From: Ilumatobacteraceae bacterium
Lineage (GTDB): Bacteria > Actinomycetota > Acidimicrobiia > Acidimicrobiales > Ilumatobacteraceae
NCBI GenBank assembly: GCA_035557475.1
Contig: DATMDV010000370.1
Span: 2,336 to 66,335 of the forward strand
Direction of reading: 5' to 3'
DNA: 64,000 nt
This document shows, piece by piece, positions 30,901-54,625 of this stretch; position 1 is the stretch's first letter; each line of letters begins with the position of its first letter. The notes under the pieces were generated by a model that did no database searches, was not told where the DNA came from, and saw only the letters and a list, made by a program, of their open reading frames with translations. The position numbers were made by a program, and so were the translations under genes.

Positions 30901-32150
30901 GGGCCGCGGCGCTGCCGGCAGGTCGGCCCGCAGTGCTCTTCGTCAGCGTCCCCACCGGCATCGGCGGATCGACGCGCTCGCTGGCGACCGTGTTGTCCCA
31001 CGTCGCCGACGACGCCGTGTGCATCCTCGCCGGGCCGCGGTCCGGGCGGTTCGTCGATCTCGTCCGCCAGAACGGGATCGATCTGCACCTCCCGATCATC
31101 TCGAGCGGCCGCGTGCGCCCGCTGCGCCGGGCGTGGACGGCGGCGCGGCTGGCGGCGTTCGCCGTTCGGCACCGCCGCCGGCTGGCGGCGATCCACGCCA
31201 ACGGCCTCAAGGAGCTGAGCTTGTCGCTCCCTGCTGCCGTCGTGAGCCGGGTCCCGCTCGTCGTCTGGGTCCACAACTTTGCCGTACCACCTTCGGTGCG
31301 CCTGTTCGGGTGGCTGTGGCGCACCGTGCTGCCGCGGTGCGACGTGCGCTGGGCGGCCGTCTCACCGCTTGCCCGCGACATCGCGGTCGGCGCCCGCCTG
31401 ACGGCGGCCGGCGACGTCGTGATCGTGCCCAACCCGATCGACGCCGCCGACGTGGTCGCACCGGCCAGGCAGGTCTCCGACACCGTCTCCGTCGCCTACC
31501 TCGGTGCGCCGCGCAAGTACAAGGGGTTCGCCCAGCTGCCCGCCATCGTCGAGCAGTCGCAGCGCCTGGTGAGCGCCGAGTGGCTCGTGTTCTCGCACCA
31601 GACCGACGACGATCTGGATGCGACCTGGCAGCAGCTCCGCACGATGGCCGCCGACGGGCTGGTGTCACTCGAGGGCAAGTTCCCCGACGTCCGCTCCGTG
31701 TACGCCCGGTGCGACATCGTGGTGTGTCCGTCGGAGCTCGAATCGTTCTGCCGGGTCGCGGCGGAGGCGATGCTGAACGGCATCCCCGTCGTCGGCAGCG
31801 ATCTGGCGCCCATCCGTGCCTTGCTCGGTGACGACGAGGCAGGCCTGCTCTTCCCGGTGGGCGACACCGAGCGGGCGGCCGCCGCGATCGCCCGCCTCGT
31901 GGAGGACGACGAGCTGCGGGCGCGGCTCGGCGAGGCCGGGCGTCGGCGGGCCGCGCCGTACAACCCGGCGAGCGTGCGTCGCCAACTGCTCGAGCTCTAC
32001 GGGATCGGCGATGCCACCGCTGGTGTCACGGCCGCGGCGAGGGCCGACGCGGGCGTCCCATGGCGCGCCGGACGACGCCGGGCAGCCGGACGCCACCACC
32101 GTGCACCGACCAGCGCACCCGACCCCATGCCGCGGCCGCCCGGGCCGTGA
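30897..32150 (+). CDS. GT4 glycosyltransferase
   Basis: The GTG start overlaps the Wzt stop (GTGA). VLFVSVPTGIGGSTRS N-terminus; VVCPSELESFCRVAAEAMLNGIPVVGS (EX7E). The last ~40 codons overlap the convergent sulfotransferase gene. Confidence 0.8.
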   Translation: MRAAALPAGRPAVLFVSVPTGIGGSTRSLATVLSHVADDAVCILAGPRSGRFVDLVRQNGIDLHLPIISSGRVRPLRRAWTAARLAAFAVRHRRRLAAIHANGLKELSLSLPAAVVSRVPLVVWVHNFAVPPSVRLFGWLWRTVLPRCDVRWAAVSPLARDIAVGARLTAAGDVVIVPNPIDAADVVAPARQVSDTVSVAYLGAPRKYKGFAQLPAIVEQSQRLVSAEWLVFSHQTDDDLDATWQQLRTMAADGLVSLEGKFPDVRSVYARCDIVVCPSELESFCRVAAEAMLNGIPVVGSDLAPIRALLGDDEAGLLFPVGDTERAAAAIARLVEDDELRARLGEAGRRRAAPYNPASVRRQLLELYGIGDATAGVTAAARADAGVPWRAGRRRAAGRHHRAPTSAPDPMPRPPGP

Positions 32151-33018
32151 TCGACGGCCGGGCGGCACCCCGCTCGTAACCGAGCTGGCTCAACAGGTCG
32201 CCGGCGACCGCCTCGAAGCGCTCGAGATCGGCGGGCGCCATGGCGGTGCGCCACGAGCGGGGTCCCGACGACAGCGGTTCGGCGAGCCGCGCGTGCCGCG
32301 GGTTGGCGCGGACCTTGGCCGGCACGCTGTCGCGACGTTCGAAGAACTGCAACATGCCCGGCTCGTAGTCGAGGTCGAGGAAATTGCACAACGCGGCGAT
32401 CGGCTCGGCCGGATCGGCCACGAGCTGCTCGTAACGCACCTCGTGGTAGCGATGCGCGCCGAGTCGCGCGCCGGCCGCCCGACCGGCCTCGACACGCCGC
32501 CGCCAGTCGATGGCGAGGGCGACCGGGTCGTGGCGCTGGCCGGCGATGGCCATCGCCGACAACGCGACGTCCCGTCCGTCGCGGATGATGTGGACGAACC
32601 GCCCCTCGGGGAACATCTCGGCGAGGGCCGGGATGCGCAGCACGTAGGCAGGCATCTTGTCGCCATAGCGGACTTTGCCGCGCTGCGACGCGTAGTGCGC
32701 GAACACCCGCCGGACGGCGTCGGGGTAGTCGGCGACCGGGGCGCCGCCAAGCGCCACCCGCAGATCGTCAGGATCCAGACCGAGGTTGCCGCGGACGCCG
32801 GGATCGGCGAGGAGGTCGGCGGTGAAGGCGTCGACGTCGAAGCCCTCGGTTCGTTCGTACCGCGACCGGCGGCGGCTCATCGGGAAGACGAACCGTCCCT
32901 CGTGGCACACGGCCAACCGGCTGTGACCATCGAGCACGGTGCGCAGCACCGAGGTGCCGGAGCGACCGGCGCCGAGGACGAACACGAACGGTGGGAACTG
33001 CTCAGGGGCCGTCATCAC
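32026..33018 (-). CDS. sulfotransferase, family A, paralog 1
   Basis: 5'-PSB loop FVFVLGAGRSGTSVL; 3'-PB FVHIIRDGRDVALS. About 320-336 aa, like its paralogs at 38002 and 45117. Basic/Trp-rich C-terminal tail. Confidence 0.8.
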   Translation of the reverse strand: MMTAPEQFPPFVFVLGAGRSGTSVLRTVLDGHSRLAVCHEGRFVFPMSRRRSRYERTEGFDVDAFTADLLADPGVRGNLGLDPDDLRVALGGAPVADYPDAVRRVFAHYASQRGKVRYGDKMPAYVLRIPALAEMFPEGRFVHIIRDGRDVALSAMAIAGQRHDPVALAIDWRRRVEAGRAAGARLGAHRYHEVRYEQLVADPAEPIAALCNFLDLDYEPGMLQFFERRDSVPAKVRANPRHARLAEPLSSGPRSWRTAMAPADLERFEAVAGDLLSQLGYERGAARPSITARAAAAWGRVRWSVHGGGVRLPGVVRRAMGRPRRPSPRP

Positions 33019-33905
33019 CCGCCCGCCGTGTAGCCGAACCGGTCCGCGCCCGACGCTGCGAGCAGCTCGTCGAGCCGGGCGATCTGCTCGACGGTGAGCT
33101 CGTCGCGGTGACCGCCGACCGTGCCGCGTCGGGTCTTGTACGTGTCGTGGTCGCCATGGCGGCCCGGGCGCAGCTTCTCGGAGGCGAACGCCTCGGTCTC
33201 CTCGAGTTGGCGCATGTTGTCGAACGAGCCGAACTCGACGGCGTCGGCGACGATCGCGGGTGCAACGTCGCCGGCGCCGGCGAACGTGAGCACCCGGCGC
33301 AGTTCGGCGTCGGGCTGAGCGTGCAGGTCCTCATACCGCACGACGAGGACGGCGCCCGGCGCGTCGAGCTGGTCGGCCCAGGCGTCGTAGAACCGCAGCA
33401 GCGACTCGAACCCCCCGACACGTTCGTCGAGGAACTCGGCGAGCGTGCCGCCGTAACCGCCGTGCCGCCCTCGACGCTGGTGATACAGCGAGACGATCAC
33501 GTCGCGGGGGTCGCGCACCAGCAGGATCACCCGCGTGCCGCGGTAACGCGACTTGTCGACGTCGACCTCTTCGGGCGCCTTCCACTGCGCCTCGTCGTCA
33601 TGCGTGGCAACGATGCACGGGACCCGGGCGTCGAGCTCGGCCAGCCGGTGCAGCTCGACGAGGTCGGCGTCGGCCGGCAGGTCGTACTGCAGCTGGAACA
33701 CCCGGCCGAGCATCACCCGCAGCCACGTCCGCCCGCACTTGGGGAACGAGACGAGGTACACGTCGGTACGCAAGCGGCGGTAGGAACCGAGCAGGCGACG
33801 GGGCAGGATCGCGGCGATGCGCTTGCGGGCCCGCGGCGTGAGCGAGCCCGCGATGCGACGGTGCGTCGCCCTCAACAAACCGCCCATCCCGGAGAGGTTA
33901 GGCAT
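33015..33905 (-). CDS. sulfotransferase, family D (Sulfotransfer_1-like)
   Basis: VSFPKCGRTWLRVML corresponds to the PKSGTTW 5'-PSB loop. ILLVRDPRDVIVSLYHQ is the 3'-PB motif. Start at ATG 33905 or 33887. 4-nt overlap with the family A gene. Confidence 0.8.
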   Translation of the reverse strand: MPNLSGMGGLLRATHRRIAGSLTPRARKRIAAILPRRLLGSYRRLRTDVYLVSFPKCGRTWLRVMLGRVFQLQYDLPADADLVELHRLAELDARVPCIVATHDDEAQWKAPEEVDVDKSRYRGTRVILLVRDPRDVIVSLYHQRRGRHGGYGGTLAEFLDERVGGFESLLRFYDAWADQLDAPGAVLVVRYEDLHAQPDAELRRVLTFAGAGDVAPAIVADAVEFGSFDNMRQLEETEAFASEKLRPGRHGDHDTYKTRRGTVGGHRDELTVEQIARLDELLAASGADRFGYTAGG

Positions 33906-34037
33906 CCGAGCGCAGGGCGTCGCCTTTGCACGCGCGATGCTGCCGCGGGACAATGCCAGCGGGCCGCCGCCGCGGGGCCGAATGTCAGCGGCATGGTCGG
34001 GGAGGAGCGGTCCGACAGGATGAGGCAGGAGGCGGTG

Positions 34038-34916
34038 ATGCAGGCTGGGAAGCAGGCCGGTGAGGCGCGCCATGACCAGCCCGTCGTCATGCGCCGCGAC
34101 GACGGCGGCCATGACGAGATCGAGTTCTTCGGCGACGGTGAGCTGCTGTTCGGCTGCCGCCACGTACCGGCGGGCGATATCCGGGCCGGCCTCGTGGTGT
34201 GCCCGTCGATCCTCTCGGACGCCGGCGCCAACTACCAGCGCGAGGTCCGCCTCGGCCGGCAACTGGCCGCGGCCGGGATCGTCGTGCAGCGCTTCCACCC
34301 GCGCGGCACCGGCCACAGCGACGGTGTCGGTTCCGACCTGACGTTGGGCTCCTTGGTCGAGGATGCACGGGCCGCGGCGGCGCAGCTGCGCGCGCGGTGC
34401 CCGGTCGAGACCGTGATGGTGCTCGGAACCCGATTCGGCGCGCTCGTGGCGGGTGCCGTCGCCGCCGAGTTGGACGACGCTCCGGTCGTGCTGTGGGAGC
34501 CGACGACCGATCCACGGCGCTTCCTCCGCGAAGGCCTGCGGGCCCGCGCCGTGCACCTCGTCCGGCAGGCCGGGGCCGAACGCGAAGATCCCGAGGTCGA
34601 GCTCGACCGCCAGGGCTTCATCGATCTGCTCGGCGTTCCGGTCGGGCGCGGGCTGTTCGAGACACCGGCCGGCCACGACCTGGCGAGCCAGATGGGCGAT
34701 CGACCGCGCCCGGTGCTGCTCGTTCAGATGGACCAACGCGACGATCTCCGCCCCGAGTACGTGAACCTCGTCGACCGCTGGACGGAGCTGGGGTTCTCGG
34801 TCACCACCCGATGCTGCCCGTGCGACGAGACGTGGTGGTACGTCCACGACCGGCTGGCACCCGCCGCGCACCTGCTCGACGCCACCGCTGAGTGGCTCTT
34901 GGCCCGATCGCCGTGA
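34038..34916 (+). CDS. alpha/beta-fold protein (hydrolase 1 of a tandem pair); Arg at the nucleophile position
   Basis: GLVVCPSILSDAGANY, FHPRGTGHSDG, and the elbow region VMVLGTRFGALVAG (G-T-R-F-G instead of GXSXG). ATG 34038 has AGGAGG 5 nt upstream. Other in-frame ATGs are at 33993, 34020 and 34089. Confidence 0.6.
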   Translation: MQAGKQAGEARHDQPVVMRRDDGGHDEIEFFGDGELLFGCRHVPAGDIRAGLVVCPSILSDAGANYQREVRLGRQLAAAGIVVQRFHPRGTGHSDGVGSDLTLGSLVEDARAAAAQLRARCPVETVMVLGTRFGALVAGAVAAELDDAPVVLWEPTTDPRRFLREGLRARAVHLVRQAGAEREDPEVELDRQGFIDLLGVPVGRGLFETPAGHDLASQMGDRPRPVLLVQMDQRDDLRPEYVNLVDRWTELGFSVTTRCCPCDETWWYVHDRLAPAAHLLDATAEWLLARSP

Positions 34917-35851
34917 GTCCGATGTCCGAGACACCCGACGCGACCGCGGCCGACGAGCTGCCGGTCGTCGTCCCGGCGAGCACCGGCGACCTGCTGGCAG
35001 TCGTCACCACGCCAACGGGCCCGGCGGCCGGGCTCGCCGCGGTGCTGTTGCGCGGCGCCGGCTGGCGTCCATCGTCGGGCCCGCGACGCACCCAGGTGCG
35101 ATTGGCGCGCCGGCTCGCGGCGGCCGGGGTGCACGGAGTGCGCTTCAGCTACCACGGCGTCGCCGAGAGCGGTGGCCAGAGCGAGGACATCGTCCGCCTC
35201 GACCAGCCGTTCGTGGAGGACGTCGACGCAGTCGCCCGATGGCTCGCCGGGGAGAACCTGCGGCCGGTTCTGGTCGGGAACTGCTTCGGGGCGCGGACGG
35301 CGCTGTCGTTCGCCGCCGGCCAAGCCGGTGACGCCGAGGTCGCCGGTCTGGCGCTGATCGTGCCGCCCGTCCACGACTTCGAAGTCGCCCGCCGGCTCGA
35401 CCGGCGCCCACTCCCCAAGCTCGCCCGGCGGGTGACGCCCACGCGCGCCTGGGCGGTGCTGCGCGATCCGGTCCGGCGACGGGCGATGGGCCGCACGCTC
35501 CGCGCCCTCTCCCACGTCGGCCGCCATCGGGTGCGGGCGGCGCGCGCCGACGATCCGGTGTGGCTGAGCCGCTCGTTCTGTCGCGAGCTCGACGACGTCA
35601 CCGCCCGCGGGATCCCGGTGCTGGTGGTCTACGGCGACGACGACAACTACTTCCGTGACTTCGAGCTCGCCCGCGCCGGCACGCTCGGCGATGTCGTCAC
35701 CCGAGCCGGCACACGGCTGGAGCTCCGTGTCGTGCCGGGGAAGATCCACGGGCTCACCAGCATCGAGACCCAGGAGGCCACGCTCGACGCGGTCGAGGAC
35801 TGGGTCCACGCCACATTGCTGCCGGGCTCGCGTCGCACGGAGCGCGCGTGA
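34913..35851 (+). CDS. alpha/beta-fold protein (hydrolase 2 of a tandem pair); Cys in the nucleophile elbow
   Basis: FSYHGVAESGG and the elbow VLVGNCFGARTAL (G-N-C-F-G). C-terminal VLVVYGDDD ... GKIHGL. GTG 34913 overlaps the upstream stop; ATG 34922 is an alternative. Confidence 0.6.
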   Translation: MSPMSETPDATAADELPVVVPASTGDLLAVVTTPTGPAAGLAAVLLRGAGWRPSSGPRRTQVRLARRLAAAGVHGVRFSYHGVAESGGQSEDIVRLDQPFVEDVDAVARWLAGENLRPVLVGNCFGARTALSFAAGQAGDAEVAGLALIVPPVHDFEVARRLDRRPLPKLARRVTPTRAWAVLRDPVRRRAMGRTLRALSHVGRHRVRAARADDPVWLSRSFCRELDDVTARGIPVLVVYGDDDNYFRDFELARAGTLGDVVTRAGTRLELRVVPGKIHGLTSIETQEATLDAVEDWVHATLLPGSRRTERA

Positions 35852-37011
35852 CGCGGATGCGGGTGATGCACGTCGTCGATTCGCTCGCCGCGTCCGGTGG
35901 CGCCGAACAGCGACTGGTCGAGGAGGCCGAGGCGATCGCCGACCGCTTCGATCAGCGCGTCGTGCGGCTGTACGGGCGCGACGAGCTGCAGCCCCGGCTC
36001 GAGCAGGCGGGCATCCCGGTCATCGCCCTCGGGATGACCGGCCGTCACGCCGGCCGCACCTGGCCCGTGGCGGTGTTGCGGTTGCGTCGGGCGTTGCGCG
36101 AGTGGCGCCCCGACGTCATCCACACGACACTCTTCTCGGCCAACCTCACCGGCCAGCTGGCGGCGCGGACGCTCGGGATCCCGGTCGTGTCGTCGTTCAA
36201 CCGGACCGGTGACATCACCCTCCAACGAACGCTGCAACCAGGTGTGGCCGGCTGGCGCGGGCGTTCGATGCAGGCCATCGCCGGCCGCGCCGCACGGTGT
36301 GGTGACGTGCACTTCCGGGCCGTCAGCGCGTACGCCCGCGACAGCAACTGCGAGCTGTTCGACGTACCGCTCGAGCGGGTCACCGTCGTCCCCCGGGGCA
36401 TCTCGGTCGGCGGCGCACCAGCGGCGGACCGCGCGGCGTTCGGGATCGCCGACGGAATCCCGCTGTTCGTCAACGTCGCTCGGCTCGTACCGGAGAAGGC
36501 GCAGCACCTGCTCGTCGACGCGTTCGCCGAAGTCCGCGACACGCTGCCCGATGCCGAGCTGGCGATCGCCGGCGCGTCGGGTTCGGCGGAACCGACGGTT
36601 CGGGCCGCGATCGCCCGCCACGGTCTCGACGGCGCCGTTCACCTGCTCGGCTGGCGCGACGACGTCCGCTCGCTCGTCGCCGTCGCCGACGTGTTCGTGT
36701 TCAGCTCGCTGTCGGAAGGGTCGCCGAGCGCGGTGCTCGAGGCGATGGTGATCGGAACGCCCGTCGTCGCGTTCGCCATCGCCCCCGTCGTCGAGCTCAC
36801 CGGCGGTCACGCCCGACTGGCGCCCACCGGTGCGCCGGGACTGCTCGCCCACGAGATGCTGGCGGCGTACAACGCTCCTGAACGGACGACCGAGATCGCG
36901 GGCGCGCAGGCGTGGGCCGCGCGGTTCGCGCTGAGCGACGTCGCCCGCCAGCTCGGCGACCTGCTCGAATGGCGAGCCGGTCGTCGGGCGGAACCCGTGC
37001 GGGCGGCATGA
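35848..37011 (+). CDS. GT4 glycosyltransferase
   Basis: MRVMHVVDSLAASGGAEQ N-terminus; VFSSLSEGSPSAVLEAMVIGTPVVA (EX7E). GTGA overlap upstream. Confidence 0.85.
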   Translation: MTRMRVMHVVDSLAASGGAEQRLVEEAEAIADRFDQRVVRLYGRDELQPRLEQAGIPVIALGMTGRHAGRTWPVAVLRLRRALREWRPDVIHTTLFSANLTGQLAARTLGIPVVSSFNRTGDITLQRTLQPGVAGWRGRSMQAIAGRAARCGDVHFRAVSAYARDSNCELFDVPLERVTVVPRGISVGGAPAADRAAFGIADGIPLFVNVARLVPEKAQHLLVDAFAEVRDTLPDAELAIAGASGSAEPTVRAAIARHGLDGAVHLLGWRDDVRSLVAVADVFVFSSLSEGSPSAVLEAMVIGTPVVAFAIAPVVELTGGHARLAPTGAPGLLAHEMLAAYNAPERTTEIAGAQAWAARFALSDVARQLGDLLEWRAGRRAEPVRAA

Positions 37012-37979
37012 GCGTGGCGTCGTCGTTGTTGGAGCGAGGTGTGGCCGTGGTGTCCATCGACACCGAGCTGGCGTGGGGCGAGTCGCACCACCGCGACGGC
37101 ACCGGGCCGCGACGCGACTACTCCTCGGAGCGCGGGGTCATCGACCAGATCCTCGCCGTGTTCGATCGCTACGACATCTCGGCGACGTGGGCCATCGTCG
37201 GCCACCTGTTCCTCGATCAGTGCGCGGCGGTCGAGGGTCTGCCGCATCCCGAGATCGTGCGCCCGGAATCTCCGTCGTCGGGCGGCGACTGGTTCGACAT
37301 CGACCCCTGCTCGACGCTCTCGGCCGACCCCGCGTACTACGGCCGCGACATCGTGGCCGCGATCCGCAGGAGTCGTGTCCCGCACGAGATCGGCTGTCAT
37401 TCGTTCTCGCACCTGATCGCCGACGGCTGCGGCGAAGCCGCGTTCGGATCCGACCTCGCCGCGTGCCAGGCGGTCGCTGCCGCGGAAGGGCTCGACGTGC
37501 GCTCGTTCGTGTACCCCCGCAACGCAATCGCGCACATCGACATGCTGCGCGGGCACGGATTCATCAGCTACCGCGGGTCGGCGGCGGCGTCGGTCAGCTC
37601 GGCCGGGCGCCTCGTCCGCTACGCCGATCGGCTGCGCCCACTGGCCAGGTCGGCCGTGGTGCCGGCCCTTCACCCGAGCGGCGTGTGGAACGTGCCGCAG
37701 ACCTACCTGTTCGCGCCGGCGACCCGCGCCCGCCACGTGCCGGTCGGGCTGTGGGCGCGACGGCCGATCGCCCGGATGCGCCTCGCGACGCGGGAGCGGT
37801 CGCTGTTCCACCTGTGGTTCCACCCGTACAACGTCACGGCCGCGCCCGACCGCGCGTTGCACGGGTTGGAGGCGATCTGCCGGGCCGCGGCCCGTCTGCG
37901 TGATGCGGGCCGGCTCGACATCCTGACGATGGGCGCCCTGGCTGCCCGCCTCGAGGCTGATCGGCCCGACGCCACCTAG
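37008..37979 (+). CDS. polysaccharide deacetylase (CE4-like)
   Basis: ATGA overlap with the GT4 gene. VVSIDTELAWG, ISATWAIVGHLF, IGCHSFSHL (His motifs of the NodB/CE4 type). Confidence 0.7.
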   Translation: MSVASSLLERGVAVVSIDTELAWGESHHRDGTGPRRDYSSERGVIDQILAVFDRYDISATWAIVGHLFLDQCAAVEGLPHPEIVRPESPSSGGDWFDIDPCSTLSADPAYYGRDIVAAIRRSRVPHEIGCHSFSHLIADGCGEAAFGSDLAACQAVAAAEGLDVRSFVYPRNAIAHIDMLRGHGFISYRGSAAASVSSAGRLVRYADRLRPLARSAVVPALHPSGVWNVPQTYLFAPATRARHVPVGLWARRPIARMRLATRERSLFHLWFHPYNVTAAPDRALHGLEAICRAAARLRDAGRLDILTMGALAARLEADRPDAT

Positions 37980-38001
37980 CGGCCCTGAGGCCGGGGCGGT
38001 G

Positions 38002-38964: not shown

Positions 38965-38977
38965 CAGACCGAAACCA

Positions 38978-40492: not shown

Positions 40493-40746
40493 GATGCGCG
40501 CCGCCCGGCGATGTAGCTGCTCATCGATCCGAGGCTGCCGAAGTTCTCGATCGTGATCTCGCGATCGGGCACGTCGATGCCGAACGCCTCCTCGATGCCG
40601 ATCACGACGCTGAGCAGCGCTGCCGAGTCGAGACCGAGGTCGAGGAGCGACGCTCCCTCGTCGACCCTCACACCGGCGTCGAGCTGGAGTCGCTCGGCAA
40701 GGAGCGCCCGCAGCCGGTCGTCGATGTCAGCATGCTCACCGTCCAC
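40489..40746 (-). CDS. acyl carrier protein
   Basis: 85 aa. LLDLGLDSAALLSVVIGIEEAFGI contains the phosphopantetheine-attachment Ser in a DS motif. 4-nt overlap with the ligase gene. Confidence 0.8.
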   Translation of the reverse strand: MDGEHADIDDRLRALLAERLQLDAGVRVDEGASLLDLGLDSAALLSVVIGIEEAFGIDVPDREITIENFGSLGSMSSYIAGRRAS

Positions 40747-40910
40747 GTCCGCCCCTCCGCGATCGATCCTACGCCGAGCCGAGCATCGATGCGGTTTGGG
40801 TCGAGATTCTCCGCGTGGGGCGCGGAAGTCCTCGACGCAAGCGGCGTGGGGCAGACTCGCGGCAGCCCGGTAGCGCTGGGACGGGCGCTTTCGATCAGGC
40901 TGTCGGCGCC

Positions 40911-41765: not shown

Positions 41766-41799
41766 AGTTTCGGTGTCCCTAGGACGCCGAAACTTCACG
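41761..41799. terminator. long perfect hairpin between convergent genes (bidirectional terminator candidate)
   Basis: CGTGAAGTTTCGG (41761-41773) pairs with CCGAAACTTCACG (41787-41799). An inner GTCC-CTA-GGAC extends the stem. The TGA of the upstream gene lies inside the 5' arm. Confidence 0.65.
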
Positions 41800-43952: not shown

Positions 43953-44124
43953 TGCTGAACCTCAGTCCTTACGGCCCCGTTACACCGTCGCAGCGGCCCG
44001 GCTGAACGTATCGGGCGGATCCTGGAAAACCGCAGAAAGCGGTCGAGTAGTCACTAAACCGATTCGACACCGACACCGAGCCGACACGGAAAACACGCCC
44101 CCTTCGAACGATTTCAACTGCCCC

Positions 44125-47146: not shown

Positions 47147-47200
47147 GCGCCGATCGTACCCCTGGCACTACGGCGCGGTCCCAGCGGCGCCTATCGTGGC

Positions 47201-48037
47201 GTGATGGCGGGAGCACGCGTGGCATCGCAGGCGGCGGTGAAGGCGACGTCCGTGCTGGCCGACCAGGTGTGGCGACCACCGCGAGGCGTCGTGATCGTGC
47301 TGTACCACCGCGTCGGTGCACGGACGCCGACAGCCGTCGACCTTCCGGCGCCATTGTTCGACGAGCAGATGGCGTGGCTCGCGTCGCGCGGCCTCCAGAT
47401 CAGCATCGATGACGCCCTGTCATCGCTCGCCGGCCCCGTCCCGTCCGATGCCCCGTCCGATCCGGGCCCGGTCGTGGTCACGTTCGACGACGGCACGGCC
47501 GACCTGGTGGAGGTCGCGCTGCCGATCCTGTCTCAACACCGCATCCCGGCCGTGTTCTACCTGGCGACCGACTTCATCGAGCGCTCCCGGCCGTTCCCGA
47601 ACGACGGGGTCCCCCTCTCGTGGGCGGCCGTGCGCGAGGCCGTGTCGACCGGTCTCGTGACCATCGGTTCGCACACCGACACCCACGCCCTGCTCGATCG
47701 CGTCGACCCCGCCACCGCGGCCGCCGAGTTGGATCGGTCGCGAACCCTCATCGAGGACAACGTCGGCGTGACGCCGCTCGACTTCGCGTACCCGAAAGCG
47801 GTCGCCGGGACGGCCGAGGTCGAGGCGCTCGTCCGGGCCCGGTTCCGGTCGGCCGCGGTGGGTGGATGCCGGCCCAACCCCTACGGGCGCGCCGATCTCC
47901 ACCGCCTCACCCGATCGGCGATCCAGGTCAACGACGGCATGCGCTACTTCGAGCGCAAGGCACGTGGCGGCATGGCCCTCGAGGATCGATTGCGGCGGAT
48001 CGTCAACCGACGCCGGTACGCGAACGCCGTGACCTGA
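47201..48037 (+). CDS. polysaccharide deacetylase (CE4)
   Basis: VVVTFDDGTADL (TFDDG motif), AVFYLATDF, IGSHTDTHALL. Confidence 0.8.
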   Translation: MMAGARVASQAAVKATSVLADQVWRPPRGVVIVLYHRVGARTPTAVDLPAPLFDEQMAWLASRGLQISIDDALSSLAGPVPSDAPSDPGPVVVTFDDGTADLVEVALPILSQHRIPAVFYLATDFIERSRPFPNDGVPLSWAAVREAVSTGLVTIGSHTDTHALLDRVDPATAAAELDRSRTLIEDNVGVTPLDFAYPKAVAGTAEVEALVRARFRSAAVGGCRPNPYGRADLHRLTRSAIQVNDGMRYFERKARGGMALEDRLRRIVNRRRYANAVT

Positions 48038-48039
48038 GT

Positions 48040-48063
48040 CGCGTCTGATTGAGTCGGCTCACT
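48040..48063. repeat. copy 2 of the 24-nt motif CG(T/C)GTCTGATTGAGTC(A/G)GCTCACT
   Basis: See 16848-16871. This copy fills the 21-nt gap between convergent stops and includes the TGA of the GT4 gene. Confidence 0.6.
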
Positions 48064-49264
48064 CCACGCTGCGTCGCTGACCGGCTGGTCGCCGACTGTG
48101 GCGCCACCAGCGGCGGCGCGTCGCGGCACGGCGATAGGTGTCGAGCACCGTCTCGACGATGCGGCGTTCGTCGAAGTTGGCCCGCGCCCTGGCGACGGCG
48201 GCGACGCCCATCGCCACCCGGCGCGCCTCGTCCTCACCGAGGGCATGGATGGCCGCGGCGAGGGCGATCGGCGCCCGCAGCGGCACGAGGATCCCGGTCA
48301 CGCCGTCGTCGACGACCTGACGGCACCCGCGGATGTCGGTCGCCACGGTCGCCAGCCCCGATGACGCCGCCTCCATCGCCGCCCGTGGGAAGCCCTCGCG
48401 ATGCGAGGGCAACACGAACACGTCCATGCCTCGGTACAGCAGGTCGATGTCGTCGCGCAGCCCGAGGAACCGGACGCCCGCATCCGTTCCCACCTGCACC
48501 TGCTCGGTCGTGAGGGCGTCCGGCTTGTCGGGATCGTGGGGCCCGATCACGACCACGAGGTACCGGTCGCCGAGGGCCCTGGCGGCCTCGATCAGCTCGA
48601 GGTGTCCCTTCTCGGCGACGAGCCGTCCGACGGTGCCGACCACCACCTGGTCGGGAGCGGCCCCGAGCTCGGCGCGCGCCCTCGCCCGCTCGCCGGCGTC
48701 GATCGCCGGACGGAAGCGCTCGAGCGCGACGCCGTTGCCGAGCAGGAACGTGCGCCGCGGCGAGTTCAACCGCCACCGCACGAGGAGCGCGAGATCCTCG
48801 GGGTTCTGGATGAGCTCGGCGTCGGAGAAACGGGCGGCGATGCCCTCGAGGGCGAGCACGACGGCCCGCCGTACCCGCTGACCGTCGCCGATGTAGAGAC
48901 CGTGGTTCGTGTTCACCACCACTGGTACCCCGGCGAGCCGGGCGACGACACGGCCATACACGCCCGGCTTCGGGTTGTGGGTGTGGACGACGTCGAAGTG
49001 CTCCGACCGCAGGATTCGCCACAGATCGAACGCGGCCCGCAGGTCGGCGCCCACGTCCCACCCACGTGTCGACGATGTCAGAGCGATGTGACGGACGCCG
49101 TCGCGTTCGAGCGCCTCGACCCAGGGTCCCGGGGCGCTGATCCCGACGACCTCACCGCCCTCGTGGAGCACGGCCAGCAGTTGCGGGCGCAGGAGGTACC
49201 ACAATGTCGAGTCGACGGTGGTGACGTGGGCGACCCGGATCGGGGCCGCGGGCGCAACGCTCAC
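48059..49264 (-). CDS. GT4 glycosyltransferase
   Basis: The GTG start overlaps the ATP-grasp stop (GTGA). IRVAHVTTVDSTLWYLL N-terminus; VLPSHREGFPRAAMEAASSGLATVAT (EX7E). Confidence 0.85.
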   Translation of the reverse strand: MSVAPAAPIRVAHVTTVDSTLWYLLRPQLLAVLHEGGEVVGISAPGPWVEALERDGVRHIALTSSTRGWDVGADLRAAFDLWRILRSEHFDVVHTHNPKPGVYGRVVARLAGVPVVVNTNHGLYIGDGQRVRRAVVLALEGIAARFSDAELIQNPEDLALLVRWRLNSPRRTFLLGNGVALERFRPAIDAGERARARAELGAAPDQVVVGTVGRLVAEKGHLELIEAARALGDRYLVVVIGPHDPDKPDALTTEQVQVGTDAGVRFLGLRDDIDLLYRGMDVFVLPSHREGFPRAAMEAASSGLATVATDIRGCRQVVDDGVTGILVPLRAPIALAAAIHALGEDEARRVAMGVAAVARARANFDERRIVETVLDTYRRAATRRRWWRHSRRPAGQRRSVE

Positions 49265-50244
49265 GTCGTGGCCCGGTCGTCGGCTACGAAGACGGCCGCG
49301 TCGTAGCGCAGCATCACGACGCCGGCGCGCCATCCGTCGGCGCTGGCCGTCGACGGGAGGCCGACCAGGTCCTCGAGGATCCAGCGCGGGAAGTCCGCCC
49401 CCGCCTCGCGCGACAGCGGGAATCCCCCGCCGAAGCGGGCGTTGAGCTCGATGATCGCCAGCTGGTCGGTTCGGTCGTCGACGAACACCTGGATCGTGAG
49501 CGCGCCGAACGGATCGGGCAGCGCGTCGCACACCTCCACCGCCAGCTGCTCGAGCGACGCCGAGCGAACCGTCACTGCCTTGGCCACCTCGCCGGCACGC
49601 ACCTCGAGGCGCCGTCGGGGAACGGCGCAGACGCGCGCACCAGCCCGATCGACGAGGACGTCGATCGTGTACTCAGTGCCGGCCGCAACCGTCTCGACGA
49701 CGACGTCGCCGACTCGCGCCGCGACCTCGAGCTCCGTCGTGTCGCTGACGATGGTCACCCCATGGGCGGCACTGCCGAATCGCGGCTTGACCACGAGCGG
49801 GAACGGCCATGCGTCCGGATCGTCGCGGACGCTCGCCAACGTCGTCTGGCGGACGGTTGGAAGATCGTTCGCCACGAGCCACTCGTGGGTCGCCACCTTG
49901 TCGGCCGCGATGGCGACGACGGCGGGCGCCGACACTGCCACGGTCGTCCCGACGGCAGCCAGCTCGGAGCTGGCGGCCGCCAACACCGGCAGCTCGGGAT
50001 CGATCGTCGGCACGACGAGGTCGACCTGTTGGTCGACGCACAGCTCTACCATGCGCGGGACGAACGCTCGGTCCGTGCACGCCGGCACCTCGAAGCCGGC
50101 GTCGGCGCTGTGCCGCGCGCTGGAGTACCACGACCGGTCGGTGGCGATGACCCGACCGTTGAGGTCGAGGTCGTGCAACGCCTCGCGGAAGCTCCGCAAC
50201 AGCTCGACGCGCCGCCCGGCCGACGACACCAAGACGGTGGTCAT
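49261..50244 (-). CDS. ATP-grasp domain enzyme (carboxylate-amine ligase type)
   Basis: MTTVLVSSAGRRVELLRSF, PLVVKPRFGSAAHGV, IIELNARFGGGFP. ATGA overlap with the sugar transferase gene. Confidence 0.75.
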   Translation of the reverse strand: MTTVLVSSAGRRVELLRSFREALHDLDLNGRVIATDRSWYSSARHSADAGFEVPACTDRAFVPRMVELCVDQQVDLVVPTIDPELPVLAAASSELAAVGTTVAVSAPAVVAIAADKVATHEWLVANDLPTVRQTTLASVRDDPDAWPFPLVVKPRFGSAAHGVTIVSDTTELEVAARVGDVVVETVAAGTEYTIDVLVDRAGARVCAVPRRRLEVRAGEVAKAVTVRSASLEQLAVEVCDALPDPFGALTIQVFVDDRTDQLAIIELNARFGGGFPLSREAGADFPRWILEDLVGLPSTASADGWRAGVVMLRYDAAVFVADDRATT

Positions 50245-50909
50245 TCGCGCCGGGCGGGGAGCTGGGTCATGGTTGCGTGACCTGCTCCCGAGATCCCGCT
50301 GCGCCGCACGACCACCGGGACCGTCCTGGCGAGGATCCGTGCGTCGAGGGCGAGCGAGCGGTGGTCGACGTACCACGCATCGAGCTCGAGCCGGGCGTCC
50401 CACCCGATCGCGTTGCGGCCGTTGATCTGTGCCCAGCCGGTGATGCCGGGGCGGACGGCCAGCCGCCGGCGCTGACGATCGGTGTACCGCTCGACGTAGC
50501 GGACCGGCAGCGGTCGTGGCCCCACGACGGCCATGTCGCCGCGGACGACGTTGACGAGTGAAGGGAGCTCGTCGATGCTCGTCGACCGCAGGAACCGACC
50601 GAGCGGCGTGATGCGGGCGCCGTCGTGGTCGGGGGCCGTCTCTCCCGCACGTAGCGGGCGCATCGTGCGCAGCTTGAGCAGCTCGAAGGGCTCACCATCG
50701 CGACCCGCGCGGGCGTGCCGGAACAGGACCGGACGGCCCATCTTGACCCTGATCGCGAGCGCCGCCGCAGCGAGCACCGGTGCGGCAAACGCGAGGGCGG
50801 CCAAGGCGATCACCACGTCGAGTAGGCGCCGAACCGCGCGGCTCGTTCGTCCCTCGATTCGCCCGTTCGTGCGCCCGGCCCCCGACGACTGAACCTTCCA
50901 GCCCGCCAC
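50241..50909 (-). CDS. small polyprenyl-phosphate sugar-1-phosphate transferase (PglC/WbaP-C type, bacterial sugar transferase family)
   Basis: One N-terminal hairpin helix (VVIALAALAFAAPVLAAAALAI), then GRPVLFRHARAGRDGEPFELLKLRTM, DELPSLVNVVRGDMAVVGPRP and RPGITGWAQINGRN. Confidence 0.85.
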   Translation of the reverse strand: MAGWKVQSSGAGRTNGRIEGRTSRAVRRLLDVVIALAALAFAAPVLAAAALAIRVKMGRPVLFRHARAGRDGEPFELLKLRTMRPLRAGETAPDHDGARITPLGRFLRSTSIDELPSLVNVVRGDMAVVGPRPLPVRYVERYTDRQRRRLAVRPGITGWAQINGRNAIGWDARLELDAWYVDHRSLALDARILARTVPVVVRRSGISGAGHATMTQLPARRE

Positions 50910-50957
50910 GACCGCTCAGTCTTCCGCATCACCGCGCGTTGTGCCAATGTTCCGGTC

Positions 50958-51842
50958 GTGGGCGGACTCCGATCTCGGGTCGCGCGGCGGGCTCGGCGGC
51001 TCCCCGTGCTTCGGCGTTATCCCGTGACGTACATCTCGTCGTGGCTCGACGGGTACCGGCTGCGCGGCGACTTCGACCAGGTTCGCGCGTTCGTGATGTT
51101 CGTCGGCCAACCGCGCACCGGGCACAGCATCGTCGGCGCCCTGCTCGACGCCCATCCGAACACGTTGATCGCCCACGAGCTCGATGCGCTCAAGTACGTC
51201 ACTGCCGGCTACGACCGACGACGCCTGTACGCCCTGCTCGTGCGTGCACAGCAGGAGCGGATCGCCGCCGGCCACATCTCCGCGACCGGCTACCAGTATC
51301 TCGTCGACGGTCAGTGGCAGGGACGGTACGAGCAGCTGCAGGTGATCGGCGACAAGAAGGGCGGTCAGTCGACCGCCCGTCTCGGCGCGGACATCGGCTT
51401 GCTCGACCGTCTGCGCGCGACCGTTGGCGTCGACGTGCACGTCGTCCAGGTCGTGCGCAACCCGTACGACGTCATCGCCACGATGCAGCGCCGGGCGCCG
51501 AATCGCCGGCTGCCCGACGTCGTCGACTTGTTCTTCGACCTCGCCGTCACGGTCGACGAGGTCCGCCGCCGGGTCCCCCCCGAACGGTTCCACGAGCTCC
51601 ACCACGACGCGCTGATCACCGACCCGACGGCCACGCTGAGCAAGCTGTGCACGTTCTTGAGCCTCCCCGCACCCGCCGACTACCTCGCCGCGTGCAGCGC
51701 CATCATCTTCGACACACCGCGTCGCACCCGCGGCGACGTGGCATGGACGCCGGAGCTGATCGAGTGCGTTCGCGCACGCTTGGCCGAGCACCCGTCGCTC
51801 GAGCACTACGGATACGAAGCCACGTCGGCGGAGGCGTCGTGA
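50958..51842 (+). CDS. sulfotransferase, family C, tandem copy 1
   Basis: P-loop FVMFVGQPRTGHSIVGALLDAHPN; VVQVVRNPYDVIATM. Collinear with the next gene along its whole length. Confidence 0.7.
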   Translation: MGGLRSRVARRARRLPVLRRYPVTYISSWLDGYRLRGDFDQVRAFVMFVGQPRTGHSIVGALLDAHPNTLIAHELDALKYVTAGYDRRRLYALLVRAQQERIAAGHISATGYQYLVDGQWQGRYEQLQVIGDKKGGQSTARLGADIGLLDRLRATVGVDVHVVQVVRNPYDVIATMQRRAPNRRLPDVVDLFFDLAVTVDEVRRRVPPERFHELHHDALITDPTATLSKLCTFLSLPAPADYLAACSAIIFDTPRRTRGDVAWTPELIECVRARLAEHPSLEHYGYEATSAEAS

Positions 51843-52714
51843 AGACCAAGCAGGCCCACCGACGCCGCCAGGTGGCGCGCCTCGTCAACGGGGTCCGCGT
51901 GCTCCCCGGCTTCCGCAACTACCCGATGCTCTACGTCAGCTCGGCGGTGCGGGGTCGCCAACTGCGCGCCGACTTCGCCAGCGTGCGCACGTTCTTGCTG
52001 TTCGTCGGGCATCCGCGCAGCGGCCACAGCCTGGTCGGTTCGCTGCTCGACGCTCATCCCGACGCGGTGGTGTCGCACGAGCTCGACGCGCTCAAGTACG
52101 TCGCCGCCGGCTATCGCCGATCGCAGCTGTTCACGCTCGTGCTCGAACACGCCAAGGCCAACGCCGCGGCTGGCCGGAAATCGTGGGGCTACTCGTACGC
52201 CGTGCCCTCCCAATGGCAGGGACGGTACGAGCGGCTCGAAGTGGTGGGCGACAAGCGCGGCCGGCGCACGACCGCCCGCCTTGCCGAACGACCCGAGTTG
52301 CTCGACCGGCTGGCGGCCACGGTGCAGATGCCGGTATCGGTCGTGCAGGTCGTCCGCGACCCGATCGACAACATCTCGACGATGTGGCGACGAGGGCAAC
52401 TCACGCTCGAGTACCAGATCGACGAGTACTTCTCGCTGTGCGACACGGTCGACAAGATCACCGCCGGGATGGATCCGGCGCGCTTTCACCGTGTGCGGCT
52501 CGAGGAGCTCATCGCCCATCCGCACGACCAGCTCACCGACCTGTGTCGGTTCCTCGAGATGCGAGTCGTGCCGGGATACGTCGATGCGTGCGCGTCGATC
52601 GTGTTCGAGGCGCCGCGCCGTACCCGCGACGATGCGCCGTGGACAGCGGAGCTGGTCGACGACGTGCGTCGTCGAGCCGGGCGCCACGAATGGCTGGCGC
52701 CGTACGACGCATGA
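51839..52714 (+). CDS. sulfotransferase, family C, tandem copy 2
   Basis: GTGA overlap. FLLFVGHPRSGHSLVGSLLDAHPD; VVQVVRDPIDNISTM. The track ORF was trimmed from 50780. Confidence 0.7.
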   Translation: MKTKQAHRRRQVARLVNGVRVLPGFRNYPMLYVSSAVRGRQLRADFASVRTFLLFVGHPRSGHSLVGSLLDAHPDAVVSHELDALKYVAAGYRRSQLFTLVLEHAKANAAAGRKSWGYSYAVPSQWQGRYERLEVVGDKRGRRTTARLAERPELLDRLAATVQMPVSVVQVVRDPIDNISTMWRRGQLTLEYQIDEYFSLCDTVDKITAGMDPARFHRVRLEELIAHPHDQLTDLCRFLEMRVVPGYVDACASIVFEAPRRTRDDAPWTAELVDDVRRRAGRHEWLAPYDA

Positions 52715-52727
52715 CGGGCGGCGGACG

Positions 52728-53789
52728 GTGAGGCTGAAGTCGCGGGTCAAACGGCTGCTGCGCTCCGCCGGGTTGCGCCGGCGGCGGTCGCCGTGGGTGG
52801 TGCACGAGGATCAGCCGGCTGGCCCGGACCCGCTCGACTCGTGGGCGTTGTACGCGATCGTGGTGACTTGGATGGAGGCCGACGTGATCGCGGCCACCGT
52901 CCGCAACGCCCTGACGCAGGGATGCGAGAGGGTGATCCTGGTCGACAACGACAGCCCCGACGACACCGTGGCGGCGGCCATCGCCGCTGGGGCCGAGCTG
53001 GGGACGTCGTTCTCGACCCCTCAGCTCGACGAGATGCTGAAGATCCGCCTGCTCAACGAGACGGTCGCACGGGTGTCGGACGAATCACCCCACGACCACA
53101 TCTGGTGGCTGTGGCTCGACGCCGACGAGTTCGTCCACGGTCCCGGCGGTTCGACCGTCGCCGAGATGCTGACGACCTTGGACCGTCGCTTCCGCATCGT
53201 CGGCACCCGGTACTTCAACCACTTCCCCGATCGCCGCCCCGAGCACCTCGTGGGGCTCCACCCGCTCGACTTCCAGGCGGCGTGCGAGGAACGATCGGGC
53301 GACCTCTGCGACCTCGGCCATCGCAAGCACAGCCTCCAACGCTGGGATCGCCACGGACCGCCGATCACGTCGGGGCTCGGGTTCCACGCTGCCCGCGCCG
53401 ACGTCACGCTCGTCGAGCCGACGCTCGCCACGTTCACGCACCACTTCCCCTACCGGTTGGAGGCGGCCACGCGGCAGCGGTTCGATGCGCTCTGTGGCCG
53501 TGACGGCAACGGACGGTCACGCGTCGATCCCTACGACCGCCAGGTGCGGCGCAACGCCCGCACCGACTCCGACATGTCGAAGCGTTACCGGACGCTCGAG
53601 CACGTCTACGCGCGCGAATGGGCGAGGATCGAGAACCTGCGCCGCGCCGGGAACACGCTCGGGGTCGTGCTGCGCCCGTGGTGCGACGCGGTCGACCCGG
53701 CGGATGCGCAGTTCGCGAGGTGGTACTCGCCGACCGAGCTCGAGGCCGCGATCGCCGAGTGGGCGCTCACGGGCGGCGCGCCCCCGTGA
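52728..53789 (+). CDS. GT-A fold glycosyltransferase (GT2-like)
   Basis: YAIVVTWMEADVI, VILVDNDSPDDT, WLWLDADEF (DxD). The GTG 52728 start is uncertain. Confidence 0.65.
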   Translation: MRLKSRVKRLLRSAGLRRRRSPWVVHEDQPAGPDPLDSWALYAIVVTWMEADVIAATVRNALTQGCERVILVDNDSPDDTVAAAIAAGAELGTSFSTPQLDEMLKIRLLNETVARVSDESPHDHIWWLWLDADEFVHGPGGSTVAEMLTTLDRRFRIVGTRYFNHFPDRRPEHLVGLHPLDFQAACEERSGDLCDLGHRKHSLQRWDRHGPPITSGLGFHAARADVTLVEPTLATFTHHFPYRLEAATRQRFDALCGRDGNGRSRVDPYDRQVRRNARTDSDMSKRYRTLEHVYAREWARIENLRRAGNTLGVVLRPWCDAVDPADAQFARWYSPTELEAAIAEWALTGGAPP

Positions 53790-54625
53790 CGCCGCCGCCT
53801 TCCACACCGGCCGGGTTGCTGCCGAACTTCGTCGTGATCGGAGCGATGCGCTCCGGGTCGACGTCGTTGTACAAGTACCTGCAGGCCCACCCCGACGTCT
53901 TCATGCCGCGCAAGGAGATCCACTTCTTCGACGTCAAGTGGGACCGCGGTGTGGCGTGGTACCACACTCGCTTCGAGGGATACGCCGGGCAGACGGCGAT
54001 CGGGGAGGCGACGCCGACCTATCTCGCCGATCCCGTCGCGCTCGACCGCATGGCGGGCACGATTCCAGACACGCGGCTGGTAGCCGTGTTGCGTGATCCG
54101 GTCGACCGCGCCTACTCGCACTACTGGATGGAACACGCCCGCCAACGTGATCCGCGGACGTTCGAGGCTGCCATTGCCGACGAGCTCGCAAGACGGCCGG
54201 GTGCACCCCCATCCGACTACCTCGACCGCGGTCGCTACGCGCGGCAGCTCGAGCAGGTGTGCGAGCGGTTCCCACGGCACCACCTGCACGTCGTGCTCCT
54301 CGACGACCTCCGCGACCGGCCCCACGAGACCTACGCCGCGGCGTGCCGGTTCCTCGGGATCGACGACGGGTTCGTGCCGCCTCGGATCGGCGAGCGGGTC
54401 AACCGGTTCGTGGCGTTCCGATCGATGCGGGTGCGGAACATGCGCCGCTCACTTCCGTCGACGTTGCGGATCGCGCGGATCGTCGGCCGGCTCAACGCTC
54501 GCGAGGGCGCCTACTCGCCGATGGCAGCCGAAACGCGGGCGACATTGCACCAGCATTTCGGCGCCGACAACGAGGCGCTGGCCGAGTGGCTCGGACGCGA
54601 TCTGTCGATGTGGGGTGCCCGATGA
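53786..54625 (+). CDS. sulfotransferase, family B, paralog 2 (heparan-sulfate sulfotransferase-like)
   Basis: GTGA overlap. FVVIGAMRSGSTSLYKYLQAHPDVFMPRKEIHFFD, VAVLRDPVDRAYSHYWM. Confidence 0.8.
   Translation: MTPPPSTPAGLLPNFVVIGAMRSGSTSLYKYLQAHPDVFMPRKEIHFFDVKWDRGVAWYHTRFEGYAGQTAIGEATPTYLADPVALDRMAGTIPDTRLVAVLRDPVDRAYSHYWMEHARQRDPRTFEAAIADELARRPGAPPSDYLDRGRYARQLEQVCERFPRHHLHVVLLDDLRDRPHETYAAACRFLGIDDGFVPPRIGERVNRFVAFRSMRVRNMRRSLPSTLRIARIVGRLNAREGAYSPMAAETRATLHQHFGADNEALAEWLGRDLSMWGAR

Follow-up and report, generated by a model that had tools for sequence, protein, structure and literature searches.

We report a polysaccharide-type gene cluster of ~39 kb (~17.9-56.9 kb) in a 64-kb window of DNA (the whole stretch analyzed, positions 2,336 to 66,335 of contig DATMDV010000370.1) that comes from an uncultured member of the Acidimicrobiia living in soil or sediment. 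Eight sulfotransferase genes were found scattered through this cluster by Pfam and NCBIfam scans. In our assessment, it is rather likely that this is a conserved Acidimicrobiia (Ilumatobacteraceae-like) cluster for a multiply sulfated glycan, with each of the eight sulfotransferases acting at a different site. The product is probably a cell-surface polysaccharide or an exopolysaccharide (EPS).

Eight intact sulfotransferase genes fall into four families

The window has ~70% G+C, and mechanical lists of open reading frames (ORFs) from such DNA are rich in antisense artifacts, so genes were vetted by their codon-position composition. All eight sulfotransferase ORFs were uninterrupted and showed a coding-like pattern, with a G+C content of 0.86-0.91 at third codon positions (GC3) and 0.46-0.57 at second codon positions (GC2). 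Each of them passed the Pfam gathering threshold for Sulfotransfer_3 and/or Sulfotransfer_1, scoring 45-134 bits against cutoffs of 22-27. The open frames, the coding-like GC3 and the Pfam matches bore out eight intact sulfotransferase genes at the coordinates given in a first-pass annotation, which had been made from the letters alone. The genes are as follows.

A1, 32026..33018, minus strand: family A, 330 aa; Pfam Sulfotransfer_3, 123 bits
D1, 33015..33905, minus strand: family D, 296 aa; cytosolic-SULT/StaL/Teg12-like; Pfam Sulfotransfer_1, 90 bits
A2, 38002..38964, minus strand: family A, 320 aa; Pfam, 131.7 bits
B1, 40911..41765, plus strand: family B, 284 aa; heparan-sulfate 3-OST/NDST-like
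A3, 45117..46127, minus strand: family A, 336 aa; TPST-like
C1, 50958..51842, plus strand: family C, 294 aa; Pfam Sulfotransfer_3, 50.8 bits
C2, 51839..52714, plus strand: family C, 291 aa; Pfam, 49 bits
B2, 53786..54625, plus strand: family B, 279 aa; Pfam matches; orthologues 63-95% identical

C1 and C2 are joined by a GTGA overlap at 51839-51842, and the D1 stop overlaps the A1 start through a GTGA of the same type. The A3 stop shares ATGA with the start of a GNAT gene, and the A3 start likewise shares ATGA with the stop of the upstream gene, which encodes a protein with a DxD motif. Alternative starts are possible for C1 (51006 or 51024) and for B2 (53816). A longer version of D1, a 639-aa minus-strand ORF at 33015-34934, was rejected, since its part upstream of 33905 had no Pfam match and substitutions relative to four relatives (L010-L014) fell on third codon positions when read in the frame of the opposite strand, the mark of an antisense artifact. 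For L010 the substitutions by codon position were 27/23/78, so that 78 of 128 lay on the third position of the plus-strand frame. This pattern indicates a plus-strand gene there, and D1 therefore starts at 33905.

No ninth sulfotransferase was found by tblastn of the eight proteins against the whole window or by Pfam scans of all other called genes. The DxD protein (46124-47146) and a polytopic membrane protein (24969-26366) were considered for this role and rejected, as neither gave such a signal with Pfam, NCBIfam or PDB searches and the former carries the DxD motif.

In all-against-all BLASTP, A2 and A3 matched each other with 266 bits (50% identity), A1 and A3 with 204 bits, A1 and A2 with 198 bits, C1 and C2 with 256 bits (49% identity), and B1 and B2 with 117 bits (39% identity), while every cross-family pair reached 38 bits or less. 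D1 stood on its own. Profile-profile comparison of the orthologue groups gave E-values of 1e-40 to 1e-113 within families and of 1e-13 (A versus C) to 2e-3 between them. Within-family similarity was thus well above between-family similarity in both comparisons. By sequence comparison the four-family partition drawn at first pass holds firmly, and A and C are the two families closest to each other.

The family motifs quoted at first pass were recovered as written. They are PPFxFxxGxGRSG[ST][ST][LV]LR and FVH[LVI][VI]RDGRDVAxS in family A, with LPPTPG[ML]RDWRRE in A2 and A3 only; GxxR[CS]G[ST][ST]xLY, KExx[YF]F and LRDPVxRA[WY]SHY in family B; FVGxPR[TS]GHS and VVQVVR[ND]P in family C, whose two members can be aligned end to end and do share the GTGA overlap; and PKCGRTW and RDPRDVIVS in family D.

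Conserved synteny and signs of ancient duplication

Related loci were collected by searches of GTDB representative genomes with A3 and D1. Syntenic loci were found in at least 15 metagenome-assembled genomes (MAGs), labelled Ilumatobacteraceae, Acidimicrobiales, Acidimicrobiia, Actinomycetota and Jiangellaceae, and the closest of them, on contig CAVZOP010000015.1 of an Ilumatobacteraceae MAG, showed 82-97% protein identity; CAWDIO01 and CAWGHB01 are further examples. Gene order was kept even in a locus with an A3 homologue of no more than 59% identity. Protein identity of 59-92% across related loci speaks against a recent horizontal copying of this cluster. The GT2 gene (52728-53789) was absent from L003 and L005, in which the rest was syntenic, and the cluster is modular in its content.

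Trees were built by neighbor-joining with Kimura distances, 100 bootstraps and midpoint rooting from 14-32 sequences, using intact ORFs only. A1, A2 and A3 formed clades with bootstrap values of 100, 100 and 99, and the B1/B2 and C1/C2 splits each received 100. Single-copy homologues from other contexts branched between the A clades, among them P0103, the sole sulfotransferase of a different EPS cluster, and single-copy A-type and C-type sulfotransferases were also seen in other polysaccharide loci (L091, L092).

The first-pass annotation had explained the eight genes by duplication and divergence inside the locus, which, taken as recent history, would have produced new regiospecificities in this lineage. 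The clear paralogy within A, B and C agrees with such a history, as do C1 and C2, which are adjacent and translationally coupled. However, positional orthologues of each sulfotransferase in the syntenic loci (L001-L023, L090) were 52-92% identical to the genes of the window, compared with 39-50% between paralogues in the window, and the orthologue groups form separate clades with 99-100% bootstrap, with outside homologues between the A clades. Recent duplication is therefore very unlikely in our view, and that part of the earlier account did not hold. The closer orthologues elsewhere and the separate clades indicate that the paralogy is ancient and arose long before the sampled lineages diverged. 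C1 and C2 alone are still a tandem pair, and their duplication also looks old.

Mixed sets of D-, A- and B-type sulfotransferases, up to four per 20 kb, were found in cyanobacterial, Chloroflexota and other loci, a rough cross-phylum comparison in which per-locus counts are undercounts, because the overlap filter drops neighbors joined by long antisense ORFs (it counted six in this window). Mixing of subfamilies in one glycan locus is a general habit, of which this cluster is an extreme case. On a Dehalococcoidia contig (L034), an analogous set comprises GNAT, a deacetylase, B-, A- and D-type sulfotransferases, GT4 and a priming transferase.

Two further observations concern the related loci themselves. 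The same cluster was present in L013 and L015, in MAGs labelled Jiangellaceae, which is a different actinobacterial class, and this points to transfer or mis-binning. In L002, L007, L009, L010, L018 and other MFD loci, which come from long-read MAGs (the MFD MAGs were obtained from Danish soil and sediment samples), tblastn often broke a gene into two or three matches that lie in different frames. Such splits are likely homopolymer frameshift errors, which would account for database 'fusion' proteins such as P0002, P0003 and P0077.

Sulfate activation genes and the glycan synthesis genes

Directly 3' of B2 lie cysD and then cysN, whose identity was shown by matches above the model cutoffs.

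cysD, 54684..55592, plus strand: sulfate adenylyltransferase small subunit; TIGR02039, 445.7 bits against a cutoff of 396.6; Pfam PAPS_reduct
cysN, 55592..56878, plus strand: sulfate adenylyltransferase GTPase subunit; TIGR02034, 566.8 bits, above the cutoff

CysN matched only positions 22-433 of the 632-residue CysN/CysC model and is without an adenosine 5'-phosphosulfate (APS) kinase domain. The other genes of the cluster are those of glycan synthesis, modification and export.

17886..32150, left part: UDP-GlcNAc 4,6-dehydratase-like, PCP/BY-kinase, DegT aminotransferase, epimerase, UDP-sugar dehydrogenase
17886..32150, left part, further genes: polytopic membrane protein, three GT4, Wzm/Wzt-type ABC exporter
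33993..53789, interleaved genes: two alpha/beta-hydrolase-like, GT4, two polysaccharide deacetylases, acyl-AMP ligase and acyl carrier protein (ACP)
33993..53789, interleaved genes, further: beta-helix protein, GNAT, DxD protein, GT4, ATP-grasp, PglC-type priming phosphoglycosyl transferase, GT2
start ~33993-34038, stop 34916, plus strand: alpha/beta-hydrolase-like gene with a weak Hydrolase_4 match
34892-35851: second alpha/beta hydrolase

The left part was syntenic in L010-L023. The glycosyltransferases of the cluster comprise five GT4, one GT2 and the DxD protein, besides the short PglC-type priming transferase (Bac_transf). The hallmarks of an xss/synechan-type cluster are present, namely sulfotransferases together with a priming transferase, glycosyltransferases and export/chain-length genes.

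Catalytic motifs and nearest characterized relatives

The 5'-phosphosulfate-binding (5'-PSB) loop (P/G-K/R-x-G-T/S-T/S) and the 3'-phosphate-binding (3'-PB) motif (R-D/N-P/G-x-D/x...S) were present in all eight proteins and invariant across 14-32 orthologues per family. In family A, the catalytic Glu (E49) lies 19 residues after the loop, aligns with the Glu of the TPST 'GEET' motif and is at least 90% conserved. Family B has an invariant K68-E69 that aligns with the 3-OST 'EPHFFD'; B2 reads KEIHFFD, with the full E-x-H-F-F-D, and B1 reads KEVEYFS, with the Glu only. In family C, H80-E81 is invariant and, like the Glu of family A, stands 19 residues from the loop. In family D, PKCGRTW, H102 and RDPRD..S139 were invariant in 15 orthologues. 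With the loop, the catalytic Glu/His and the 3'-PB motif kept across orthologues, all eight enzymes look catalytically competent.

The nearest solved relatives of family A were TPST1 (PDB search, E 2e-24) and then CurM-type domains, and NCBIfam gave a weak match to NoeE, the fucose sulfotransferase of Nod factors. An AlphaFold2 model of A3, built from an 89-sequence alignment, reached a predicted local distance difference test (pLDDT) score of 93.6, and its top Foldseek matches were TPST1/2 (E 1e-13). Over the whole catalytic domain, family A aligns with TPST1/2 (PDB 5wri, 3ap1), sharing GxxRSGTT, the Glu at +19, DKTP and RDGRD..S as well as the fold. Unlike TPST, family A has no N-terminal transmembrane anchor; when the type II anchor of TPST was sought, no N-terminal hydrophobic anchor was seen in the family A translations. 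Family A also carries a conserved basic C-terminal helix of 30-40 residues outside the TPST-aligned region, and its context is one of glycan synthesis genes, not of protein or peptide synthesis. We therefore do not class family A as a TPST.

The first-pass annotation had likened family B to animal heparan-sulfate sulfotransferases, and the PDB matches agreed: 3-OST-3A1 (1t8t) at E 1.4e-22, the bacterial structure 3rnl, and the NDST1 N-sulfotransferase domain at E 2.9e-18 (B1). Family B shares with heparan-sulfate 3-OST/NDST (PDB 1t8t, 1vkj, 1nst) the 5'-PSB loop, the catalytic Glu in KE..FF and the 3'-PB motif RDPV.RA.S, with E-values of 1e-22 to 1e-17. It differs from them in being ~25-30% identical, in lacking the Golgi type II anchor, in having Arg for Lys in the 5'-PSB loop and, for B1, in lacking the His and Asp of E-x-H-x-x-D.

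For family C, the sole sequence match among solved structures was CurM-ST (E 9e-5). A C2 model (AlphaFold2, pLDDT 89.8) showed the sulfotransferase fold, with TPST2 and CurM-ST as the best Foldseek matches, at only 16-17% identity; the models of A3 and C2 matched only sulfotransferases in the PDB, in agreement with the sulfotransferase alpha/beta fold. Relative to the CurM/olefin-synthase activating sulfotransferase domains (PDB 4gbm, 4gox), to which the TM-score was ~0.5, family C is free-standing rather than a polyketide synthase domain and has an invariant set of its own (PR.GHS, HELD, DK, R.P.D). C2 had 1029 homologues at E <= 1e-5, and family A had roughly 2900. As far as our searches show, family C appears to be an uncharacterized TPST/CurM-ST-like branch.

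The best PDB matches of D1 were plant SOT16/18, SULT1 enzymes, Teg12 and StaL. Family D shares with cytosolic SULTs, StaL, Teg12 and Teg14 the PKxGxTW motif, the invariant His and RDPxD..S, and aligns end to end with Sulfotransfer_1. It differs from them in its conserved basic N-terminal extension of ~45 residues and its polysaccharide-locus context. In cyanobacteria, Chloroflexota and Streptomyces, too, D-type homologues adjoin EPS genes.

Basic extensions on all eight enzymes

Each family A protein ends in a basic tail, mapped as follows.

A1 basic C-terminal tail, residues ~289-330 = 32029-32154, minus strand
A2 basic tail, residues ~290-320 = 38005-38097, minus strand
A3 tail helix, residues 300-335 = 45120-45230, minus strand, from the AlphaFold2 model

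The last 40 residues of A1, A2 and A3 carry a net charge of +9 to +10. The tails had been described at first pass as Arg/Trp-rich; they are indeed basic, and 'Trp-rich' amounts to merely one or two Trp per tail. The C-terminal extension could be aligned in all of A1-A3 and in 17 database homologues, down to 45% identity, with a conserved Pro-Ser entry and two invariant arginines. Inside each A orthologue group, identity was 44-49% in the tail and 63-68% in the core, and group-specific tail motifs were seen (A1, AAWGR.RWQ...R...RLPG; A2, ARWQLHRV.RR). In the A3 model, residues 300-335 form a single continuous 36-residue helix with pLDDT 83-94.

The convergent GT4 gene (30933-32150, plus strand) overlaps A1 by 125 nt (32026-32150), and the A1 tail was considered as a read-through artifact of this overlap. 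Among ten related loci, 95 substitutions in the overlap fell on the third codon position of A1, which is the second position of the GT4 frame, versus 49 and 41 on the other two. GT4 orthologues beyond the closest relative align only to ~360-366 of 405 residues. Both results identify the A1 tail as the constrained reading and the GT4 extension as incidental, so the artifact was rejected. The last ~40 residues of GT4 look like an unconstrained late-stop extension common only to the closest relative. With their conservation in homologues and the A1-frame constraint in the overlap, the tails were found not to be frame or annotation artifacts.

Basic segments were not confined to family A. B1, C1, C2 and D1 have N-terminal segments with a net charge of +7 to +10, and B2 has an internal basic amphipathic segment (residues ~205-235), with a hydrophobic moment of 0.70 at residues 219-236. 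The N-terminal segments were conserved among orthologues (B1, R.R[VIL]P...RHR[IL]A....VPTGRWR; C1, R.LPV.R.YP), as was the extension of ~45 aa in D1. All eight enzymes thus have a conserved, strongly basic extension of 30-45 residues, which sits at the C-terminus in A, at the N-terminus in B1, C1, C2 and D1, and within the protein in B2. The neighboring DxD protein (46124-47146) was also seen to end in a basic tail. Taken together, the earlier annotation was right on the eight genes, the four families and the tails and erred on the timing of the duplications; it had overlooked the TPST likeness of family A, the basic extensions on all eight enzymes and the cysD/cysN pair beside B2.

Other conserved proteins of the locus

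The DxD protein is encoded at 46124-47146 on the minus strand (340 aa), carries the DxD motif as LALDTDT, is 67-93% conserved in every related locus and is translationally coupled to A3. It gave no match in Pfam, NCBIfam or PDB, and it probably represents an undescribed family of GT-A-type glycosyltransferases. At 41811-43952 (minus strand), a 713-aa protein has a hydrophobic anchor at its N-terminus, together with a linker rich in Thr and Pro and a right-handed beta-helix (CEMIP_beta-hel/Beta_helix). It is conserved in all related loci and is a candidate for a glycanase, lyase or C5-epimerase that works on the product outside the cell. A FadD-like acyl-AMP ligase and an 85-aa free-standing carrier protein (38978-40746, minus strand), conserved in the cluster, suggest that the product is acylated or aminoacylated, or that it has a lipid anchor.

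Between the UDP-sugar dehydrogenase and GT4 genes, at 24969-26366 (minus strand), lies the 465-aa polytopic membrane protein, which is 54-85% identical in related loci, had no family match in Pfam, NCBIfam or PDB and may be a polymerase- or ligase-like component. The Wzt-like ABC ATPase (29710-30900, plus strand, 396 aa) extends ~150 residues beyond its nucleotide-binding domain. By analogy with some O-antigen Wzt proteins, this C-terminal part could be a glycan-terminus-binding domain. Directly past the cluster, at 56892-62600 (minus strand), a 1902-aa protein with DUF7379, alpha/beta-hydrolase-like, CHAT protease and TPR-sensor domains resembles conflict-system/STAND-like proteins and is unrelated to the sulfotransferase finding.

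Discussion

If the cluster makes a multiply sulfated glycan, the PglC-type priming transferase and about eight glycosyltransferases would assemble its chain on a polyprenyl-phosphate carrier. The lipid-linked glycan would be assembled at the inner membrane face, and the Wzm/Wzt-type ABC transporter and PCP/BY-kinase would serve its export and control. The eight sulfotransferases would each sulfate a different site with 3'-phosphoadenosine 5'-phosphosulfate (PAPS), for which CysD and CysN of the locus would raise the APS supply and an APS kinase encoded elsewhere would make PAPS. By exposing amines, the two deacetylases may prepare the chain for N-sulfation through the NDST-like family B, possibly giving a split between N- and O-sulfation once they have acted. 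The basic extensions most likely serve as tethers of the soluble catalytic domains, either to the inner, anionic membrane face next to the exporter or to the lipid-linked chain, or to the polyanionic product itself.

We infer that all eight enzymes are active, each with a non-redundant acceptor, that is, a different sugar residue or position. Different regiospecificities among the paralogues, which the first-pass annotation had also proposed, can reasonably be inferred from the long retention of copies that appear catalytically intact. As the multiplicity seems ancient and has been maintained, it implies a structurally defined sulfation pattern, not redundancy.

Several points weigh against this reading. 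No APS kinase was found in the 64-kb window by Pfam and NCBIfam scans of called genes or by a six-frame P-loop search, so PAPS formation must depend on one encoded outside it. A1 is absent from L012 and L022, in which the rest is syntenic, and hence not all eight enzymes are indispensable. The neighbor-joining trees, with their 14-32 sequences and midpoint rooting, do not give a secure deep branching order. The N-terminal 30 residues of C2 were modelled with low confidence. The family A tails have hydrophobic moments of 0.34-0.38, which are marginal over shuffled controls (p 0.05-0.22), and a negative mean hydrophobicity. The nearest solved relatives of family A sulfate protein tyrosines, not sugars, and the acyl-AMP ligase, the ACP and the alpha/beta hydrolases are compatible with an acylated glycolipid instead of a polymer.

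The last two points lead to different products. Tyrosine sulfotransferases occur in bacteria, RaxST being one, and some of the eight, in particular family A with TPST1/2 as its best sequence and fold matches, could sulfate tyrosines of a protein or peptide, for example the membrane-anchored beta-helix protein with its Thr/Pro-rich linker. However, A3 is translationally coupled to the DxD glycosyltransferase-like gene and the GNAT gene, single-copy A-type homologues lie inside other polysaccharide clusters, family A has its weak match to NoeE, and no RiPP-like precursor (for ribosomally synthesized and post-translationally modified peptides) or peptide-processing gene was found in Pfam scans of the locus genes; tyrosine sulfation is thus quite unlikely. 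A glycolipid that bears both sulfate and acyl groups, or a short oligosaccharide with a lipid anchor, like mycobacterial sulfolipids or sulfated Nod factors, would fit the conserved FadD-like acyl-AMP ligase, free-standing ACP and two or three alpha/beta hydrolases. ABC-2 exporters also transport glycolipids, and mycobacterial Stf-type sulfotransferases are among the fold matches. We hold such a product to be unlikely, given a set typical of polymers: about eight glycosyltransferases, a polyprenyl-phosphate priming transferase, PCP/BY-kinase, deacetylases and a glycanase/epimerase-like beta-helix protein.

The extensions, too, can be read in another way, as docking elements of a multi-enzyme complex or as arms gripping the growing polyanion, not as the membrane anchors proposed at first pass. 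They are Arg-rich with a negative mean hydrophobicity and a modest hydrophobic moment, the pLDDT of the A3 helix is unusual for a free membrane-seeking helix, and the neighboring DxD protein has a similar tail. On the other hand, a basic amphipathic segment is equally suited to anionic bacterial membranes, and the two roles are compatible. We regard docking or gripping instead of anchoring as possible, if somewhat doubtful. The confident A3 helix lends the earlier proposal weak support and the modest amphipathicity of the tails detracts from it; peripheral membrane anchoring of family A is plausible.

Within the reading as a multiply sulfated glycan, a more specific and by itself improbable form is a bacterial heparan sulfate analogue, a polymer of uronic acid and amino sugar that would be N-deacetylated by the deacetylases, N-sulfated by family B, O-sulfated by A, C and D, and epimerized or trimmed by the beta-helix protein. 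'Sulfated glycosaminoglycan-like' material has been found chemically in environmental biofilms and granular sludges, with producers and enzymes not known (PMC7356697, PMC10483923). Prokaryotic glycosaminoglycan (GAG) sulfotransferases were not known as of 2020 (PMC7356697), and bacterial pathways for GAG-type sulfation have been called 'not well known' (PMC10483923). If the cluster did make such an analogue, widespread uncultured Acidimicrobiia would be a source of this material, and a GAG-type sulfation line would gain new prokaryote-specific components in family C and in the basic docking extensions.

Sulfated polysaccharides are central in animal and algal biology and are valuable materials. 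The locus is a concrete candidate for a densely sulfated bacterial glycan, conserved across many Acidimicrobiia MAGs, and it offers a panel of small soluble enzymes, presumably with different regiospecificities, that could serve chemoenzymatic sulfation. The enzymes are of known superfamilies, and sulfotransferase-bearing EPS clusters are already known. Classification of the eight proteins alone is ordinary annotation; the noteworthy part is a conserved eight-enzyme set with its own sulfate activation.

Among bacteria, essentially only cyanobacteria are known to make sulfated polysaccharides (PMC8205485, PMC13390465), and a full-text literature search found no paper on sulfotransferases in Acidimicrobiia. 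The clusters for comparison are that of the sulfated exopolysaccharide synechan (xss) in Synechocystis sp. PCC 6803, with two sulfotransferases and Wzx/Wzy (PMC8205485), and the predicted wps-1 cluster of Actinoplanes missouriensis, also with two sulfotransferases and Wzx/Wzy (PMC13390465). Like the present locus, both hold sulfotransferases of different subfamilies amid glycosyltransferases, a priming transferase and export genes. The locus described here differs from them in its eight sulfotransferases of four subfamilies, its Wzm/Wzt-type ABC exporter, its own cysD and cysN, its two deacetylases, its acyl-AMP ligase/ACP pair and beta-helix protein, and its origin in Acidimicrobiia.

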